64,000 nt of DNA from Escherichia phage 55, in sequence record OQ599310, one strand, 5' to 3'. This document shows positions 2,537 to 61,839 of this stretch, piece by piece. Under the pieces are notes generated by a model. The model worked only from the letters and a program-made list of their open reading frames with translations, was not told where the DNA came from and did not search any database. Every line of letters starts with the position of its first letter. The first letter of the stretch is position 1. The position numbers and the translations under genes are program-made.

Positions 2537-3645
2537 TAGAAAGTCCCCGCATAAAGTGAAGAACGGTTTAATGTAATAATTTCTCGCATTGTTATCTCTA
2601 ACGTAAATGTTGACGGTAAGTTAGGAGCAACAGCAAGACCATTAAATTGTCCATTTGGAGTTTTATCAAAACGTACGCTTTGAATTTGACATGGGCCAAA
2701 TACATCAGTTAACCCGTCAAATTTAGATGTATAACCAAAGTTTTTAACCATCCAAATTGTAGGGTTACTTACAACTAATACATTTGTTAATGACGCAGTA
2801 ATCTTTTCAAACAATGTCTTATTTTTTACTGCATCGTCTGGCGTCATAGGCTCAATAAACGTTGAACGGTACCATTCGTCTAAATAACTTTTAATCTCTT
2901 GGGCGTACTGTGATTTACCGGTCTCACCATATGAGAAATAGTTAAAATACTGGTAAATGTTTATAATAGCCATAAGGTCTTCAGTTGAACGCGGAGTTAA
3001 ATCCCATGTAAAGACTTTAGTACGGTTCTCGGCACCACCATACATACTACGAGAAGTCGTATAAATCTGCTCGTTATTATCAGCCATAAGCCCTTGAGTA
3101 ATAGAATCTAATGCACCAAAAACTGCAGTAGAAGCAATGTTACTTAAAACACCTGTAGCAGTACCTCCACCTTTAGTAATAAGGCTATCACCGATATCAT
3201 TAAAACGATGTGAAGTTGTATCAACGTCAGATTTGGAACGTGGCAAAAGTATATTAGCAACAGGAGTTTTATTTATAGTAGATTTATTAGCTCCGGCAGG
3301 AAGCAACCCATTAGAGAATTTAGTCACTGCATCTTTCACGTTATCAGTTAAATCTGATATGATACCATTAGATGAAGTTCCGGCGTATGCCGGACGTAAA
3401 TTCCTGAGGGATCCTGAATCGCGTGCAGACATATTGTACGCGGTAAATAATAATCCATTCTTATAAAGGTCTGTTACCTGGAAGTCTCCTGTGGAGTCAT
3501 TTCCGGCTGCTCTTCCTGTAGGAAATTGAGCAACATAAGTTTTAGTAGTTGTTTCGGTTTTAGTGCTTTGCCCAGCACTTTCTGAGACTGGGATTGCTTT
3601 ATTTAAATCCTTTGCATCTACTACTATTTCTTTTACACTAATCAT
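2536..3645 (-). CDS. 48: baseplate tail tube cap gp48
   Basis: 369 aa; synteny between 54 and 29; stop overlaps gene 54 start. Confidence 0.8.
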   Translation of the reverse strand: MISVKEIVVDAKDLNKAIPVSESAGQSTKTETTTKTYVAQFPTGRAAGNDSTGDFQVTDLYKNGLLFTAYNMSARDSGSLRNLRPAYAGTSSNGIISDLTDNVKDAVTKFSNGLLPAGANKSTINKTPVANILLPRSKSDVDTTSHRFNDIGDSLITKGGGTATGVLSNIASTAVFGALDSITQGLMADNNEQIYTTSRSMYGGAENRTKVFTWDLTPRSTEDLMAIINIYQYFNYFSYGETGKSQYAQEIKSYLDEWYRSTFIEPMTPDDAVKNKTLFEKITASLTNVLVVSNPTIWMVKNFGYTSKFDGLTDVFGPCQIQSVRFDKTPNGQFNGLAVAPNLPSTFTLEITMREIITLNRSSLYAGTF

Positions 3646-3653
3646 AATAATCC

Positions 3654-5426
3654 TTAATTAACACCGGTGGCATGGAAAATTCCAGGAGCCGTTGTACTTG
3701 TTACAGGGGTCATATTCTGGACTACGGTATTCTTTTTGACGACGTTATTTGTGTTACTAATCGCCGCTACCGGTTGCTGTTGTTTAGATTCAGAAGCACG
3801 TCCTTTCTCTATTGACTGAACTTGTTTTGCTTCCGGAGATTTAGTCGAAGATTCAGGCTTAACTGTTGTCTGAGCCTTTTTGGCTTCAGCCATTTTATTA
3901 TTTAGCTTTTCAAATCTAGCGTCTATTTCCTTTTTAACAACAGGAGTTTTATTAAGTTCAGGGTCTTTAATAAGTTTACTTAAATCAGCATAAGACTTCT
4001 CGACGTTTTTAGCATTTTCCGGATTAGTCATATCGATTTTATCGATATAATCCTCAAATCTAACCAGTGCCGCACGAGTTTCATTAGCTTTTATATACGC
4101 CTCTTTACGCTCCTCTTCAGGTAACTCTTTTAATTTTGCTGATTCCGCAGCACGCTCATCGCTTGTACTAAACTCTTCTTTATTGTCATTACCACGAACC
4201 CAGTTAGTAACGAATGTTTTGCCGCGTTGTAACATATCAAGACCTTTAGAAACGGTTCCTAATTCCCCATCGTCACGCTTCATTTGATATTTAGCGACTT
4301 TCTCTTGGTCTTCTTTCTTTAATTTGTTCCCAGTAGTTTCTTGGAATCCTTCCAAAGCACGTCCTTCTATTTCGTCCGCGGTATCACCAAAACCTATAGC
4401 ACGCAATATAGATGCGGAGAGTTTAGCCATTCCTAATTGAATTAGTTCACCTAAGTTCATTAATGCTGTTCCTACACCTTTGACAATAGCAACGGTTAAA
4501 CCACCCCAGTCTCCAGCTTCCCACAATTGTTTTATCGAGTCAATAGAAGTGAATATATCACTTAAGAATTTACCCCACTCTTGAGCTTCATCGGAGAATT
4601 TAGTAAAGTTTTCATCAAATAAATCCCAGGCAGAAGTGAATTTGTCTGTCCAATATTTGAAATGGACTATCAATAAATCAATACCGATAACAATACCAAG
4701 AATAAGCGCGGCCATTTTTGCTGCTTCAATAGCGGCCGTTATAGTGTATTTGAAAAGCATTCCAGCAATTCTGTCTGAAATTGATATTGATTTATTAAAC
4801 CCGGTTTGAACTGTTTTGGTGAGCATTGCGATTTTATCGCTCAATTTAAAGCTAATTCCGCCTTTAGAATCGGAAGTAGAATTAGCACTTTCTTGAACCG
4901 GGGCTGGGAAGAAATCTTCGTCTGGCTTATTATCAATCTTTTCAGGTGTAGGTAATGCTTTAAACAACTCATCAGAAGTTTCATTCTCAACCACTTTAAC
5001 AGGTATTGCGTTCTCAATTACTTCAAGAGAGGTGCCTCCTGTATTTTGAATAGCGGTAGATGTTTGTAATTTTTGCTCTAACAATGTAGCTAATCGGTCT
5101 AACTTAGAGCTTATTGCACTAGAAACTTCGTTTATACTTTTAGTGACTTCAGTTTGTTTTTCAATAACTTCTGCGATAAGCTCTGTGCCTTCAGCAGTAT
5201 TATCTGTCGAATTCTTTAAGTCTCCAATTGATTCAATAATTCCATTGCCTTTATCTTCTACACTTTGCGATGTGAGTTCAGACGCGGCTTGGACATCGTC
5301 TAGTTTTGATGAAATATCATTCAATGCTTCTAATGAATCGGTAGCTGCTGTTGCAGCTACTTTTTGTGGTTTATTATCGGCAATGACCTTATTTCTACGC
5401 ATGGATTTCATTTCTTCAGGTTTCAT
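3654..5426 (-). CDS. 29: tail length tape measure / baseplate hub gp29
   Basis: 590 aa, same as T4 gp29; synteny. Confidence 0.85.
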   Translation of the reverse strand: MKPEEMKSMRRNKVIADNKPQKVAATAATDSLEALNDISSKLDDVQAASELTSQSVEDKGNGIIESIGDLKNSTDNTAEGTELIAEVIEKQTEVTKSINEVSSAISSKLDRLATLLEQKLQTSTAIQNTGGTSLEVIENAIPVKVVENETSDELFKALPTPEKIDNKPDEDFFPAPVQESANSTSDSKGGISFKLSDKIAMLTKTVQTGFNKSISISDRIAGMLFKYTITAAIEAAKMAALILGIVIGIDLLIVHFKYWTDKFTSAWDLFDENFTKFSDEAQEWGKFLSDIFTSIDSIKQLWEAGDWGGLTVAIVKGVGTALMNLGELIQLGMAKLSASILRAIGFGDTADEIEGRALEGFQETTGNKLKKEDQEKVAKYQMKRDDGELGTVSKGLDMLQRGKTFVTNWVRGNDNKEEFSTSDERAAESAKLKELPEEERKEAYIKANETRAALVRFEDYIDKIDMTNPENAKNVEKSYADLSKLIKDPELNKTPVVKKEIDARFEKLNNKMAEAKKAQTTVKPESSTKSPEAKQVQSIEKGRASESKQQQPVAAISNTNNVVKKNTVVQNMTPVTSTTAPGIFHATGVN

Positions 5427-49348: not shown

Positions 49349-49352
49349 GTAG

Positions 49353-49381
49353 TTTACATGCTGATAGGACTATGTTATAGT
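49353..49381 (+). promoter_or_regulatory. early promoter with stem-loop
   Basis: TTTACA / TATAGT; palindrome GATAGGACTA..TAGTCCTATC. Confidence 0.65.
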
Positions 49382-49416
49382 AGTCCTATCAAATCAACAA
49401 CCAAACGGAAAAACAA

Positions 49417-49680
49417 ATGAAAACCTATAAAGAATTTATCGCTGAATCTCAATCTTCTACTCTGTCAGAGAACTACGAATCATTCTCTTACAACAACGAC
49501 CATGCAATGTTCTACGACCGAAACATCGGTACTTATGTCCATGTATGGGGTGTTAAAGATGGTAATGTAGTTGTTAAGAAAAACTCTAAAGAAGGCAACG
49601 GACGAGGCCAGGTAAAAATTACCAGCAAGAAAGCTATCCAAGCTTACGTCGATTATGTTAAACGCGAAGCTGGTATTTAA
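49417..49680 (+). CDS. CTS-bearing internal-protein-like protein (87 aa)
   Basis: N-terminus MKTYKEFIAE; first 23 nt identical to ipI start; early promoter 49353-49381. Confidence 0.75.
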   Translation: MKTYKEFIAESQSSTLSENYESFSYNNDHAMFYDRNIGTYVHVWGVKDGNVVVKKNSKEGNGRGQVKITSKKAIQAYVDYVKREAGI

Positions 49681-49683
49681 TAG

Positions 49684-49712
49684 TTTACATGATGATAGGA
49701 CTATGTTATAGT
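49684..49712 (+). promoter_or_regulatory. early promoter with stem-loop (same as 49353 copy)
   Basis: Same 40-nt promoter/palindrome sequence. Confidence 0.65.
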
Positions 49713-49749
49713 AGTCCTATCAAATCAAATGAGTAAATGGAGAAATAAA

Positions 49750-51360: not shown

Positions 51361-51705
51361 ATGAAAGGCAATGTTTATCTGGTAGTTCATGATTTAACGT
51401 TTTATTTTAACGAATATGATACAGTTATTTCTCATCGATTGATTAATTCGCTGTATCAGCATGCCGATTACATCTATGTTCAAAATGAATTTGGTCATTG
51501 GAAGTTCATTAAAAACCGTTCCGGGTTAACTAGTTTTGAATACTTTGACCGTAAAGACCTTTTAAACGAAATCCCATTGCAACATCGGTTTCAGAAACGC
51601 GAATCATTATATTATTGCCGTCATATACCAAACGCCGAATGTGTTGATGAAGCAATTAATCTATGGCGTAGACGTAGAGAACAAATTGATGATATGCCAA
51701 AATAA
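51361..51705 (+). CDS. hypothetical protein
   Basis: ATG 51361 after GAGGAAAA RBS; ORF-track start 51313 lies inside tRNA-Arg. Confidence 0.6.
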   Translation: MKGNVYLVVHDLTFYFNEYDTVISHRLINSLYQHADYIYVQNEFGHWKFIKNRSGLTSFEYFDRKDLLNEIPLQHRFQKRESLYYCRHIPNAECVDEAINLWRRRREQIDDMPK

Positions 51706-51719
51706 GAAGCCGGGTCGCT

Positions 51720-52006
51720 ACCGGCAAGACGTCGGACTGATGTTCCCTGAGTAAGGACTGGTCTTAATAAATCTTTATGATTCGTTAATATCCCCTTACA
51801 TCACAGCAGAAACGGCGCACAGAATTATCGATTCGAGGAAATATCTTTGCCGTAAGCCGAGTAGCGTTTTTGACGGAACGTTCGGATATGGTCGAGATAT
51901 GGCCTTTTAAAATATTGAGTAGCGTCAACTACTTAATAACCGGGTTCAAATCCCGGCGTTTCGTACAAACACTTACCTAGTAGGTGGAAACCCCGACAAG
52001 GTATAT
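51720..52006 (+). ncRNA. candidate small stable RNA region (T4 rnaC/rnaD-like?) with tRNA-like T-arm
   Basis: ~290 nt without ORF in the tRNA neighbourhood; hairpin GCCGG..CCGGC at 51710-51725; T-arm CCGGG/TTCAAAT/CCCGG at 51940-51956; no canonical cloverleaf. Confidence 0.3.
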
Positions 52007-52036
52007 AGCCCCTTCCGAAAGGTTGGGGCTTTTTTG
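52007..52036 (+). terminator. rho-independent terminator (repeat copy 1)
   Basis: AGCCCCTTCCgaaaGGTTGGGGCT then TTTTTT. Confidence 0.7.
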
Positions 52037-52044
52037 TATAAATA
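52037..52044 (+). promoter_or_regulatory. late promoter TATAAATA
   Basis: Exact TATAAATA 36 nt upstream of ATG 52080. Confidence 0.6.
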
Positions 52045-52079
52045 TAGTAAACAATAAACCTACTTTCTAAGGACCATCA

Positions 52080-52706
52080 ATGTATACTTTTAATGAATTT
52101 TTAGCCGAAACGGAAGTAATCACCGAAGCCGGTGTACGTATGACAAAAGAGAAGTGGCAAGCTGCTTACGATGCTATTTCTGGTACAAAAACTAGTACAG
52201 AGTTTTTCAAAAACGTTCAAGCCATGTACGGTATCGACACTTCCAGCCAAAAAGAATATTACAGAGCTTCTAAAGCATTCAAAGATATTGTTAGTGGTGG
52301 TGTTTCTGCTAAATCTGGTTCGCCTAAAGTAAAACCTGCTCCTACCACTCCTAAACCTGCGACCCCTAAAGCAGTAGCAAAACCTGAGCCTAAGCCGGAA
52401 GTAAAAGCAACTCCTAAAGCTCCTGCTCTTAAGTTTGATACTTCTAGCCTGGAAAAAAAATATAAACAACTATCTTCGCTTGTTCGTGATATTGAATCCG
52501 ATACATCTTCACTCGTTCGTGAATTCAACAGTCTTCGTAATGGCCAACATATCAACAACCTTGATACCCCAGACCTTTATCGTCTTTATTTGACTATTGA
52601 AGGTTTGAAGTACACTCAACCACTTCACGATGAGATTAAAGAAAAACTTCGTCAGGCAGGTCGTTTGGCTGCTGACGCTGCTCAGTATGCAAAAACCCGT
52701 AAATAA
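52080..52706 (+). CDS. CTS-like N-terminus protein with Lys/Pro-rich linker (IPIII-like?)
   Basis: 208 aa; MYTFNEFLAE N-terminus; own late promoter and flanking terminators. Confidence 0.7.
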   Translation: MYTFNEFLAETEVITEAGVRMTKEKWQAAYDAISGTKTSTEFFKNVQAMYGIDTSSQKEYYRASKAFKDIVSGGVSAKSGSPKVKPAPTTPKPATPKAVAKPEPKPEVKATPKAPALKFDTSSLEKKYKQLSSLVRDIESDTSSLVREFNSLRNGQHINNLDTPDLYRLYLTIEGLKYTQPLHDEIKEKLRQAGRLAADAAQYAKTRK

Positions 52707-52724
52707 TTAAGTTACAATCACTTA

Positions 52725-52750
52725 AGCCCCTTCCTATGGTTGGGGCTTTC
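52725..52750 (+). terminator. terminator-like hairpin (repeat copy 2)
   Basis: AGCCCCTTCCtatGGTTGGGGCT then TTTC. Confidence 0.55.
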
Positions 52751-52785
52751 GGGCATCTAGGGCAGATAAATTTTTCACAAAGTTG

Positions 52786-52813
52786 TTTACTTCTCCTTGA
52801 GGTATGATACTAT
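52786..52813 (+). promoter_or_regulatory. early promoter
   Basis: GTTTACT ... TGATACTAT; ends in TAGACCTATC repeat. Confidence 0.55.
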
Positions 52814-52843: not shown

Positions 52844-53347
52844 ATGAGTCTTTATACTGAACTGAATAAAAAATCTGAAGAATCGCGTGACGTTGTTTTT
52901 AAAAATGTACAAAAGCGTATTTTGGAAAAGATGTATGATGCTGCATCTAAAGGTGAAAAATCATGCCGCTTTCCGATGAGATGTTCTACAGATTTATGCT
53001 CAAATACTATTGAATGGTTAGAAAGCGAAGGTCTTACTGTAGAGAAAAACCCGGCGACTTCTATTGACGGTGAATCATATATTAGTATTTCTTGGGATAA
53101 ACCACAGGTTAATGAGAAAGACGGTGATTGGGTTGTGGATGTTAAGACTTCTGATGGTGGACGTTCTGTTGAAGTTTCAGCCGTAGTTAAAGGTACACAT
53201 GGGCAAAATAGCTGGGGATGTGGTGGTGAAGAAAAAGAAATTGTTCTTAGTGTGATTGCAAGGTCTACTAGCAATAAAATTGCCCAGAGCATCATCTATG
53301 CTGCATGTATCGAAGCTGGAAAAATTTGCAAAATTAAAAATAAATGA
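52844..53347 (+). CDS. hypothetical protein
   Basis: 167 aa; RBS GAGGAAAA; early promoter 52786-52813. Confidence 0.65.
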   Translation: MSLYTELNKKSEESRDVVFKNVQKRILEKMYDAASKGEKSCRFPMRCSTDLCSNTIEWLESEGLTVEKNPATSIDGESYISISWDKPQVNEKDGDWVVDVKTSDGGRSVEVSAVVKGTHGQNSWGCGGEEKEIVLSVIARSTSNKIAQSIIYAACIEAGKICKIKNK

Positions 53348-53376
53348 TGTACAAACACCATGGACGGTGTTACTAT
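53348..53376 (+). promoter_or_regulatory. early promoter
   Basis: TGTACA, 17 nt, TACTAT. Confidence 0.55.
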
Positions 53377-53404
53377 AGACCTATCAAATCAAGAGGAAAA
53401 CAAA

Positions 53405-53632
53405 ATGGCTAAAGTTAGTATTGATGTCGTTGATTATGAATACACAGAAGAAGTTATTCGCAACCGTCACCCTGAAGTTCGTATCGATTCAGCCCAAGAT
53501 TCCAAGTTCTGGACAACTGAGCTTAATCTGAGTGGTCCTTATGAAGCTGTTAAGAAGTTCATGGTTGAAGAATACTGTGAAGGCATGCACCCCGAAGACG
53601 CCAAGTTTTATGTCAATTTGATTAAAAAATAA
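53405..53632 (+). CDS. hypothetical protein
   Basis: 75 aa from ATG after GAGGAAAA; track start 53360 overlaps promoter. Confidence 0.6.
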   Translation: MAKVSIDVVDYEYTEEVIRNRHPEVRIDSAQDSKFWTTELNLSGPYEAVKKFMVEEYCEGMHPEDAKFYVNLIKK

Positions 53633-60263: not shown

Positions 60264-60752
60264 ATGAATATATTTGAAATGCTTCGTAATGACGAAGGTC
60301 TTAGACTGACTTTATACAAAGACACTGAAGGCTTTTGGACAATTGGCATAGGCCATTTAGTAACAAAGAACCCGTCTTTAGCCGTAGCTAAAGCTGAACT
60401 CGACAGAATGATCGGACGTAAATGCAACGGTACAATTACCCTTGATGAGGCTGAAAAGCTATTTAATGAAGACGTTGATAAAGCCGTTCGCGGAATTTTG
60501 GGTAATGCTAAACTTAAACCGGTATATGATTCTTTAGATGCGGTTCGTCGATGTGCATTGGTCAATATGGTCTTCCAAATGGGTGTAGCAGGCGTCGCCG
60601 GTTTTACTAATTCTCTTCGTATGCTTCAACAGAAACGTTGGGATGAAGCGGCAGTAAATCTAGCCCAATCTAAATGGTATCGTCAGACACCTAATCGCGC
60701 GAAACGCGTAATCTCAACATTTAAAACAGGAACTTGGAAAGCGTATATATGA
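60264..60752 (+). CDS. e: lysozyme (endolysin)
   Basis: MNIFEMLR...DEAEKLFN...[13 protein letters not shown] matches T4 lysozyme; start ATG 60264 after GGAGG; track start 60252 is GTG. Confidence 0.97.
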
Positions 60753-61030
60753 AAACATATAGCGAATTTTTATCAGAATCTATTCTTAACGAAGCTACTG
60801 ACACATTTGCAACTAAGCTAGGTGCCGCTTTGGTTGAAGCCGAAAGTCTATTAGCACGTATTTCTGAACTTGCTAGTAAGATAGATACTCGCAAATTTGA
60901 GCGCACCAGTGATATCGTTAAGCTTGAAGCACTGTTGCGTATGTGCGATAAACCCGAAGAAATCGCTAAGAACGGCTCGCTGATGAAACAACGTCTTGAA
61001 AAATATATTTCAGGCGCTTCAGAAAAATAG
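60749..61030 (+). CDS. CTS-bearing internal-protein-like protein (94 aa; IPII/IPIII position)
   Basis: N-terminus [10 protein letters not shown]; ATGA overlap with e stop. Confidence 0.75.
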
Positions 61031-61032
61031 TG

Positions 61033-61062
61033 TTTACTTCCTCCAAGGGTTTTGATACTATA
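61033..61062 (+). promoter_or_regulatory. early promoter upstream of denV
   Basis: GTTTACT ... TGATACTAT. Confidence 0.55.
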
Positions 61063-61088
61063 CATCTATCAACTACTTGGAGGAAATT

Positions 61089-61509: not shown

Positions 61510-61839
61510 ATGAAAACATATCAAGAGTTTATCACTGAAGTTACATTATCTGCGGAACAGAAAGCTGCTATCGAAGAAAGTAAAAATCCCAAAGTAACAT
61601 ATAAAGTAAATAGTAAAGGCGTTTTTGATGGCTTGGTTCAAGACCCTGAATTGAAAAAAGCTCTTTCTAAAACTAATGCGTACTTTGCTCCTAAATTTAA
61701 CACAGCAGGTGTACTTATTGGATTGGATGTATTCAACTCTAAAGGTGTTCTATCTAATGCCTTTGGTTATGCCGCTAACAAAATTACCAAAGCCGCATGG
61801 GAATCCAATACCAAACAAGCTCAAAAGCCTAGAGTATAA
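61510..61839 (+). CDS. CTS-bearing internal-protein-like protein (109 aa)
   Basis: MKTYQEFITE at internal Met after AAGGAAAAA RBS. Confidence 0.75.
   Translation: MKTYQEFITEVTLSAEQKAAIEESKNPKVTYKVNSKGVFDGLVQDPELKKALSKTNAYFAPKFNTAGVLIGLDVFNSKGVLSNAFGYAANKITKAAWESNTKQAQKPRV

Follow-up and report, generated by a model that had tools for sequence, protein, structure and literature searches.

The internal proteins (IPs) of T-even phages are a diverse set of proteins having only their N-terminal leader, the capsid-targeting sequence (CTS), in common (PMC3012670, PMC9026906). At two highly variable IP loci of these phages, sequences resembling the promoter-early stem-loop (PeSL) were described by Repoila et al. 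in 1994 (EMBO J 13:4181), and shuffling was proposed, as this work is related in two later papers (PMC2839356, PMC4122927). The PeSL cassettes of T4-type phages are described by Arbiol et al. 2010 (PMC2839356) and Comeau et al. 2014 (PMC4122927); in RB49, the segment between neighbouring PeSLs has been shown to be excised as a mini-circle, and T4 recombination needs only small patches (<50 bp) of homology (PMC2839356). The locus considered here is that of a 208-amino acid (aa) gene in a 64,000-nt stretch of Escherichia phage 55 (record OQ599310), which is referred to as the window and to which, as a whole, all coordinates apply. Judged by its sequence, the source phage is T4-like and belongs to the genus Mosigvirus. 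The 208-aa gene lies between two copies of a putative terminator hairpin, and it is likely that IP gene cassettes have a slot here, in a hyperplastic region directly 3' of the stable RNA genes rnaD and rnaC, and that genes are deleted, inserted, and exchanged in this slot by homologous recombination within the terminator repeat. With the PeSL cassettes this slot shares the presence of intergenic stem-loop terminators and promoters flanking non-essential open reading frames (ORFs) of hyperplastic regions. It differs from the two T-even IP loci, as these are related in the later papers, in being a third position, between rnaC and e.8 or a 167-aa gene, which is empty in T4.

The repeated hairpin and the contents of the proposed slot

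The features of the slot in the window are as follows (here and below, HP is a hairpin copy and a slash between sequences of the slot is a joint).

52007-52030 (element 52007-52036), + strand: hairpin 1, AGCCCCTTCC-GAAA-GGTTGGGGCT, left boundary of the proposed cassette
52037-52044, + strand: putative T4-type late promoter TATAAATA, exact motif
52069-52073, + strand: Shine-Dalgarno sequence AAGGA, as read from the sequence, 6 nt before the ATG
52080-52706, + strand: 208-aa gene of a probable internal head protein (PHROG 2280), with its ATG at 52080
52725-52747, + strand: hairpin 2, AGCCCCTTCC-TAT-GGTTGGGGCT, copy of hairpin 1 and right boundary of the proposed cassette
52748-52784, + strand: leader TTCGGGCAT/CTAGGGCAGATAAATTTTTCACAAAGTT, matching the sequence right after the single hairpin at empty sites (when compared with LF82-4, G2285, JK45, and T4)
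52785-52813, + strand: T4-type early promoter GTTTAC-17 nt-TACTAT, found by a pattern scan
52844-53347, + strand: downstream early gene of 167 aa (PHROG 6869), conserved right flank of the slot

The pattern AGCCCCTTCC-N(2-8)-GGTTGGGGCT occurs at exactly two sites in the 64-kb window and at none in 100 shuffles, and a looser search for the 3' arm across the window finds no third copy. The two near-identical hairpins that the initial annotation had placed around the gene are therefore real, as are the exact late promoter motif at 52037, the 208-aa gene at 52080, and the Lys/Pro-rich linker that it quoted; its description of the protein as CTS-like is also correct. One coordinate is changed: the second hairpin, which had been drawn to 52748, ends at 52747, one base earlier, because its loop has 3 nt and not 4. 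The hairpin was also considered as a dispersed repeat of the genome, which is rejected, as there are two copies only.

The 10-nt arms of the two copies are identical, including both unpaired T/T positions; what distinguishes the copies is the loop and the tail, copy 1 being followed by TTTTTTGTAT and copy 2 by TTTCGGGCAT. Both hairpins are obtained when folding 51-nt stretches as RNA, with centroid energies of -16.9 kcal/mol (hairpin 1) and -14.8 kcal/mol (hairpin 2). A simple terminator scan reported neither of them, because of the internal 2x2 mismatch. Both are marked as terminators in related genomes by other annotators, and hairpin 1 is annotated in G53. Hairpin 1 is located 41 nt 3' of rnaC and has a GC-rich outer stem of 6 bp, an inner stem of 2 bp, and the GAAA loop. 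There are six consecutive T at 52030-52035, and the stem is closed by the first of them. Hairpin 1 is preserved behind rnaC in T4, RB59, RB68, RB69, JK45, and several IMG/VR contigs. Its position, structure, and conservation suggest that it is probably the terminator of the tRNA/rnaD/rnaC operon, which is how it is read because the 208-aa gene sits directly 3' of rnaD/rnaC. Hairpin 2 has the same stem, but just TTT ahead of CGGG, which is a weak T tail. This element is also found behind the different CTS gene of JK45.

The orientation that hairpin 2 has in the window is also seen in NicPhage, AV116, NHEP29, and TB004. In hairpin 2 of G53 (extracted locus 4027-4049), the inner 11 nt are the exact reverse complement of those of the window, as shown when comparing AGCCCC-AACCATAGGAA-GGGGCT (G53) with AGCCCC-TTCCTATGGTT-GGGGCT (window). 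A flip of the stem-loop of this kind is the expected outcome of template switching at a palindrome.

The initial annotation proposed that the gene could be inserted or excised as a unit at the repeats. In agreement with this cassette proposal, presence/absence polymorphism bounded by the repeats is found when comparing related phages: LF82-4 and G2285 are empty, JK45 has a swapped gene, and in Tequatrovirus RB68 is occupied with respect to T4 and RB59. The IMG/VR database has only seven contigs with the rnaC end, and the survey is thus based on the GenBank phage collection. A query was constructed as the junction that is expected from hairpin-to-hairpin deletion of the window gene, and it has one contiguous match of ~360 nt in four Mosigvirus records (NBG1, ECO111 5-P, LF82-4, and G2285). 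The arrangements are the following.

LF82-4 and G2285 (the two of these four that were inspected): rnaC, one hairpin, CTAGGGCA leader, early promoter, directly followed by the 167-aa gene; no gene between
T4 and RB59: HP-TTTTTGGTAT/CTAAGCC, early promoter, e.8; no gene
RB68 and one IMG/VR contig: HP-TTTTTGGTAT/AAATA (late promoter), 157-aa CTS gene, HP-TTTTTGGTAT/CTAGGCC, e.8
RB69: HP/AGTTTGAATC, ORF149c as a third type of CTS gene, then a diverged hairpin (same tail) and CTAGGCC
Three IMG/VR contigs: HP, 157-aa gene, HP, AGTTTGAATC, 187-aa gene, hairpin, CTAGG, e.8; two CTS genes in tandem
JK45: 154-aa gene of the RB68 type between hairpins like those of the window, then CTAGGGCA leader, early promoter, 167-aa gene
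Window, NicPhage, AV116, NHEP29, and TB004: HP, late promoter, 208-aa gene, HP, CTAGGGCA leader, early promoter, 167-aa gene

Across these relatives there are none, one, or two putative IP genes, always joined at a hairpin copy. The single hairpin of LF82-4 keeps the GAAA loop of copy 1 and the single hairpin of G2285 keeps a TTAT loop, like copy 2 of JK45; the joints are therefore at different points inside the repeat, as expected of homologous exchange. The RB68 insertion, with T4 as the reference, has a ~35-bp direct repeat at its two ends, and in two of the three two-gene contigs the first two hairpin copies are identical over 30 nt. A four-way alignment gives, for the window against JK45, an identity of mostly 85-99% in the flanks and of only 25-46% between the hairpins, and JK45 is thus read as a swap, having between the same hairpins a CTS gene that is unrelated to the 208-aa gene. 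Hairpin 2 and the leader of the window resemble those of JK45, and therefore the present arrangement is probably the product of an exchange between lineages. In an evenly spaced sample of the records that fully cover the T4 junction, the site is empty in eight of 27 and occupied in 19; the occupancy was scored from the number of matching pieces and their span in the rows listed, the search tool joining the two pieces of an occupied site into one place. The empty sites are read as deletions because the slot is occupied in six genera. The family of the 208-aa gene is present in 143 records and the RB68-type gene in 512.

Two of these loci have a further peculiarity. In RB69, ORF149c and ORF148c (extracted locus 2936-3498) look like one 187-aa CTS gene that is split by a frameshift or a sequencing error, and this gene is intact in two IMG/VR contigs. 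In fHe-Yen9-01 (extracted locus 1501-2616), CTS genes of the 208-aa type and of the RB68 type are found in tandem, 9 nt apart and with no hairpin between them; as the two types can thus occur side by side, they are not alleles of a single gene.

The 208-aa protein and its genomic surroundings

The late promoter motif TATAAATA is located 43 nt 5' of the ATG of the 208-aa gene. It is frequent in this genome, and in the AT-rich window it is not rare, with five copies on the + strand and 14 on the - strand. A (T)ATAAATA motif is present at the same place upstream of the orthologues in G53, pEK20, IME08, CHI14, Yen9-01, PG7, and Marfa (six genera), and also upstream of the RB68-type gene.

The N terminus of the protein, MYTFNEFLAE, is identical at six of ten positions to the CTS of T4 IPII/IPIII, MKTYQEFIAE. 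In this CTS, positions 4 and 7 are for targeting and positions 8 and 10 for processing (PMC9026906), and the key positions are kept in kind in the 208-aa protein (F4, F7, L8, and E10). Two candidate protease sites are recognised by sequence motif (the slash being the cleavage point), LAE/T after residue 10 and ITE/A after residue 16, as shown by the comparison of MYTFNEFLAE/TEVITE/A with the start of T4 IPI, MKTFKEF...TITE/A. Among ten homologues, E16 is invariant and A17 nearly invariant. The TITE/A site of T4 IPI is at residue 19, which fits its mature form of 76 residues (PMC3012670). The predicted isoelectric point of the 208-aa protein is 9.5. In its AlphaFold model, which has a moderate pLDDT of 71, a helical N-domain (~20-72), a disordered Lys/Pro/Ala linker (74-113), and a three-helix C-domain (122-206) are predicted. 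When this model is compared with the Protein Data Bank by Foldseek, only generic helical-hairpin matches are found, with E above 1. The Pfam search of the protein returned nothing, PHROG 2280 is without known function, and the 18 proteins found by the homologue search are all hypothetical or nameless; a literature search for a virion proteome covering the protein or its homologues found none. From its CTS, the 208-aa protein is probably an internal head protein, which would be packed in the head and injected with the DNA.

In six genera, the orthologues occupy the same interval, between the tRNA cluster and e.8 or e.6. The sequence identity to the window protein is at least 90% in several Mosigvirus and decreases to 64% in Dhakavirus IME08, 58% in Winklervirus CHI14, 42% in Tegunavirus fHe-Yen9-01, and 34% in both Karamvirus PG7 and Marfavirus Marfa, each of these orthologues having a terminator and the (T)ATAAATA motif upstream. 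Over 1.3 kb, the identity of the window is 99.8% with NicPhage and 97.8% with G53. Upstream of the slot there are genes for tRNA-Met and tRNA-Arg, followed by the two stable RNAs.

51702-51820, + strand: homologue of rnaD (species 2 stable RNA), identical to T4 rnaD in 101 of 120 columns of a local alignment
51828-51965, + strand: homologue of rnaC (species 1 stable RNA), identical to T4 rnaC at 136 of 139 positions

The rnaD gene is annotated at the equivalent position in RB68 and RB59. A 94-nt "tRNA-Lys" reported by ARAGORN (51873-51966) is rejected as a tRNA gene, being the tRNA-like 3' part of rnaC. In several GenBank records the rnaC stretch is annotated as "tRNA-Arg" or as hypothetical proteins. 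The Rfam scan of 51700-52000 finds nothing besides two tRNAs; there is no Rfam family for rnaC or rnaD.

Similar behaviour is seen elsewhere in the window. An 87-aa CTS gene (49417-49680), located where T4 has ipI, has a 48-nt direct repeat on either side (49350-49397 and 49681-49728), the two copies being identical at 47 of the 48 positions. Each repeat has an early promoter, GTTTAC...TATAGT, overlapping a stem-loop, ATAGGACTA...TAGTCCTAT, and these repeats can be regarded as a textbook PeSL pair. Further CTS genes are found on both sides of denV, at 60749-61030 (93 aa, directly after the lysozyme gene) and at 61510-61839 (109 aa, after denV), with an early promoter and a stem-loop at 61032-61087, between the first of them and denV; by their position, these two genes are the counterpart of the T4 ipII/ipIII locus. 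The two IP loci of Repoila et al. are, by the T4 map, the ipI locus and the ipII/ipIII locus, and the CTS genes at 49417, 60749, and 61510 correspond to the classical IP loci. A smaller indel is that of a 54-aa ORF between the 167-aa gene and frd.3, which is present in pEK20 (extracted locus 4122-4392) and JK45 and absent from the window and G53; it is bounded by a repeated promoter motif, TAYTATAG-CCTATCAA (TAYTATAGnCCTATCAA), located at 53369-53392 of the window. In the same region, the start of the 90-aa ORF at 53360-53632 is probably the ATG at 53405 (MAKVSIDV...), its Frd3 domain covering residues 16-90 and its first 45 nt overlapping the early promoter.

A probable mechanism and its alternatives

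The slot would probably work as follows. Hairpin 1 would end the early tRNA/stable-RNA transcript, the late promoter 3' of it would drive the 208-aa gene, and hairpin 2 would end or attenuate the late transcript before it reaches the early promoter from which the next gene is read. With hairpins on both sides of the late unit, the late gene would therefore be insulated inside an early region. The CTS would take the 208-aa protein into the prohead core, the gp21 prohead protease would remove the propeptide after E10 and/or E16, and the basic mature protein would go into the head along with the DNA and be injected with it at the next infection. The analogy with T4 IPI* suggests that the injected protein may act against host defence. 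Internal proteins are the first phage proteins entering the cell, and to our knowledge IPI*, which blocks a restriction system, is the one characterised internal protein. The hairpin copies and their tails together form a direct repeat of ~25-35 bp, at which the cassette would be deleted by homologous recombination of the phage itself or by copy-choice during replication. At the same repeats, a cassette from a co-infecting relative could be inserted, or one cassette replaced by another.

Several observations weigh against this reading. Hairpin 2, having three T after its stem, may be a poor terminator. The hairpin GCCCCnnCCGAAAGGTTGGGGCTTTTT is also found in many IMG/VR phage contigs that are unrelated to T4 (a ~38-kb group and a 251-kb contig) and in Av-05, a member of the Vequintavirinae (NC_025830, 113598-113628), and it is apparently a widespread terminator type. 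Its presence in unrelated phages makes identical stems alone weak evidence of common descent or duplication. In pEK20 and most of the other listed records with the 208-aa gene (the JS09-like majority of Mosigvirus), the downstream hairpin is an unrelated one, GGGGAC-TTCG-GTCCCC, and the downstream hairpins of IME08, CHI14, and Marfa have the same general form, a GC stem with a TT(C/A/G)G loop. Only six records share hairpin 2 of the window: NicPhage, AV116, NHEP29, TB004, a 6.6-kb fragment, and G53, where it is flipped. As most carriers of the gene have the unrelated hairpin, the gene can do without the repeat, which is not ancestral to it either. The 208-aa gene itself, with its constant position across six genera, gives the impression of a long-established gene and not of a frequent mover. 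Finally, for each event it is we who infer the direction, deletion or insertion.

These points also bear on what the initial annotation had named as evidence against its own proposal. The gene without flanking repeats is literally found, in pEK20 and most of the listed carriers, so that the repeats are not obligatory, yet they still mark the joints of the slot. The hairpins are indeed, as had been considered there, an ordinary terminator type also of unrelated phages. The argument for a cassette is made because the two copies are adjacent, because the homology reaches into their tails, and because the joints of the relatives are at the hairpin; the repeats are then best seen as the likely marks of the recombination joints of the slot, and not as an obligatory part of the gene.

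As a separate observation, GCATCTATCA and an early promoter in the style of T4, GTTTACTTCTCCT...TATAGTAGACCT, come after the hairpin in Av-05, beside a gene annotated as "lysis inhibition". This arrangement looks like a PeSL in another phage family.

It is improbable that the hairpins are mere insulating terminators of a late gene in an early region, alike since they belong to a favoured, efficient type, and having no role in the gain and loss of genes. The presence of the hairpin in unrelated phages (the ~38-kb contigs, Av-05, and the 251-kb contig) and the unrelated second hairpin in most carriers of the 208-aa gene are in agreement with such a purely insulating function, as is the finding that every orthologue is bracketed by some terminator, the two usually being different. 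This type of hairpin occurs, however, only twice in 64 kb, in adjacent copies that have the same unpaired T/T positions, and in RB68 and its relatives the similarity runs past the stem, into TCTTA on the left side and into TTTTTGGTAT on the right side. In addition, the empty sites, the swap, and the two-gene array are all joined exactly at the hairpin, and the two empty sites have different loops.

There is likewise only a slight chance that the repeats are the remnants of a tandem duplication of an ancestral unit of late promoter, IP gene, and terminator, the three gene types being old paralogues that are distributed by differential loss and unequal crossing-over, with no foreign import. The three types do share an architecture of CTS, helical domain, Lys/Pro/Ala linker, and helical C-domain, and two types are found in tandem in fHe-Yen9-01 and in three IMG/VR contigs. 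The pairwise identity of 22-31% is weak, and the E-values of 3e-6 to 5e-2 (BLASTP) overstate the significance of the comparison because the database has seven sequences. While the hairpin copies are near-identical, the genes are only ~25% identical, and therefore recent exchange or conversion at the hairpins would still be required. Hairpin 2 and the leader of the window are also like those of JK45 and unlike those of other Mosigvirus with the same gene, which points to exchange between lineages. This duplication scenario concerns the origin of the repeats, and it is compatible with recombination between them at the slot.

An integron-like movement by a dedicated enzyme, having the hairpin as its target (a structure-specific nuclease acting on the extruded cruciform, or a homing endonuclease such as SegB), is very unlikely and is rejected here, even though Arbiol et al. 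speculate on a specific DNA-binding protein at the PeSL stem-loops (PMC2839356), the inversion of hairpin 2 in G53 indicates that the palindrome is mutationally active, and homing endonuclease genes are present in the neighbouring tRNA cluster of T4, RB59, and AV116, since the joints vary within the repeat (GAAA loop in LF82-4, TTAT loop in G2285), as is not expected of fixed-site cleavage, since no integrase or recombinase is seen among the annotated neighbouring genes (the whole window was not searched for one), and since short homology (<50 bp) suffices for T4 recombination (PMC2839356).

Recombination within the repeated terminator thus remains the preferred explanation. A slot for the loss, swap, and stacking of genes at a 25-35-bp joint would help to explain the quick re-tooling of T4-like phages for new hosts. 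The combination of CTS, late promoter, and hairpin provides a simple signature for finding unannotated injected proteins, and the slot would be a natural, transcriptionally insulated site for the insertion of cargo in phage engineering.

Comparison with known systems

When compared with the T-even IP loci, as far as these are related in the later papers, the slot is similar in having variable genes with only the N-terminal leader in common, and in having conserved regulatory stem-loops on both sides, for which the shuffling between related phages has been proposed. It differs in the nature of the repeat, which is a terminator hairpin with a T tail, followed on the left side by a late promoter, and not an early promoter/stem-loop on both sides. 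The 208-aa gene is similar to the genes of T4 IPI, IPII, and IPIII in coding for a small basic protein that has a CTS with gp21-type sites, in the late promoter motif upstream, and, as for the T4 IPs, in being dispensable in relatives. Its mature part is unlike IPI-III in having no sequence similarity to them and in its two-domain layout with a long Lys/Pro/Ala linker.

The slot resembles the lambdoid morons in being a single gene with its own promoter and terminator inside a differently regulated region. It differs from them in that the flanks of morons are not thought to drive mobility (PMC2839356), whereas here the repeated terminator coincides with the joints. The variable joints, and the annotated neighbours without a recombinase, are unlike integrons and site-specific systems.

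The closest similarity is with the PeSL. As for the PeSL, indels and replacements between close relatives end in the motifs, and where one phage has two motifs with an ORF between them, another has a single motif; the relevant cases are the empty sites (LF82-4, G2285, T4, and RB59), the occupied sites (window, RB68, and JK45), and the two-gene sites (three IMG/VR contigs). Hairpin 2 with the early promoter at 52785-52813 (GTTTAC-N17-TACTAT) has the PST/T4-type PeSL layout, and this promoter fits the PST/T4 PeSL consensus TTTACW-N17-TAYWAT (PMC4122927). On the left side, the hairpin is followed by a late promoter, without an early promoter, and therefore the strict definition of a PeSL does not apply there. 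A pairing of the stem-loop with a late promoter is not among the versions found in PMC2839356 and PMC4122927, which are early (PeSL) and middle (PmSL) ones. The homology is also shorter, ~25-35 bp for the hairpin with its tail when compared with ~100 bp for the PeSL motif, and the mini-circles that have been shown are those of the PeSL in RB49.

The locus may add to these systems a slot that is possibly undescribed so far and a family of putative injected proteins without known function. A bolder view, which is considered rather unlikely, is that the slot is a third T-even IP cassette array, located behind the tRNA/stable-RNA operon and not explicitly described so far, in which a bare terminator hairpin with a late promoter is the linker, as a "late" counterpart of the PeSL, stacking none to two injected proteins, and the hairpin, present as it is in unrelated phage families (in Av-05 along with a T4-style early promoter), is possibly a shared docking sequence for exchange between families. 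Clearly, the general principle of such shuffling has been published already (Repoila 1994; Arbiol 2010; Comeau 2014), and what is gained is not a new concept; this locus is a further clean and well-populated example of it.

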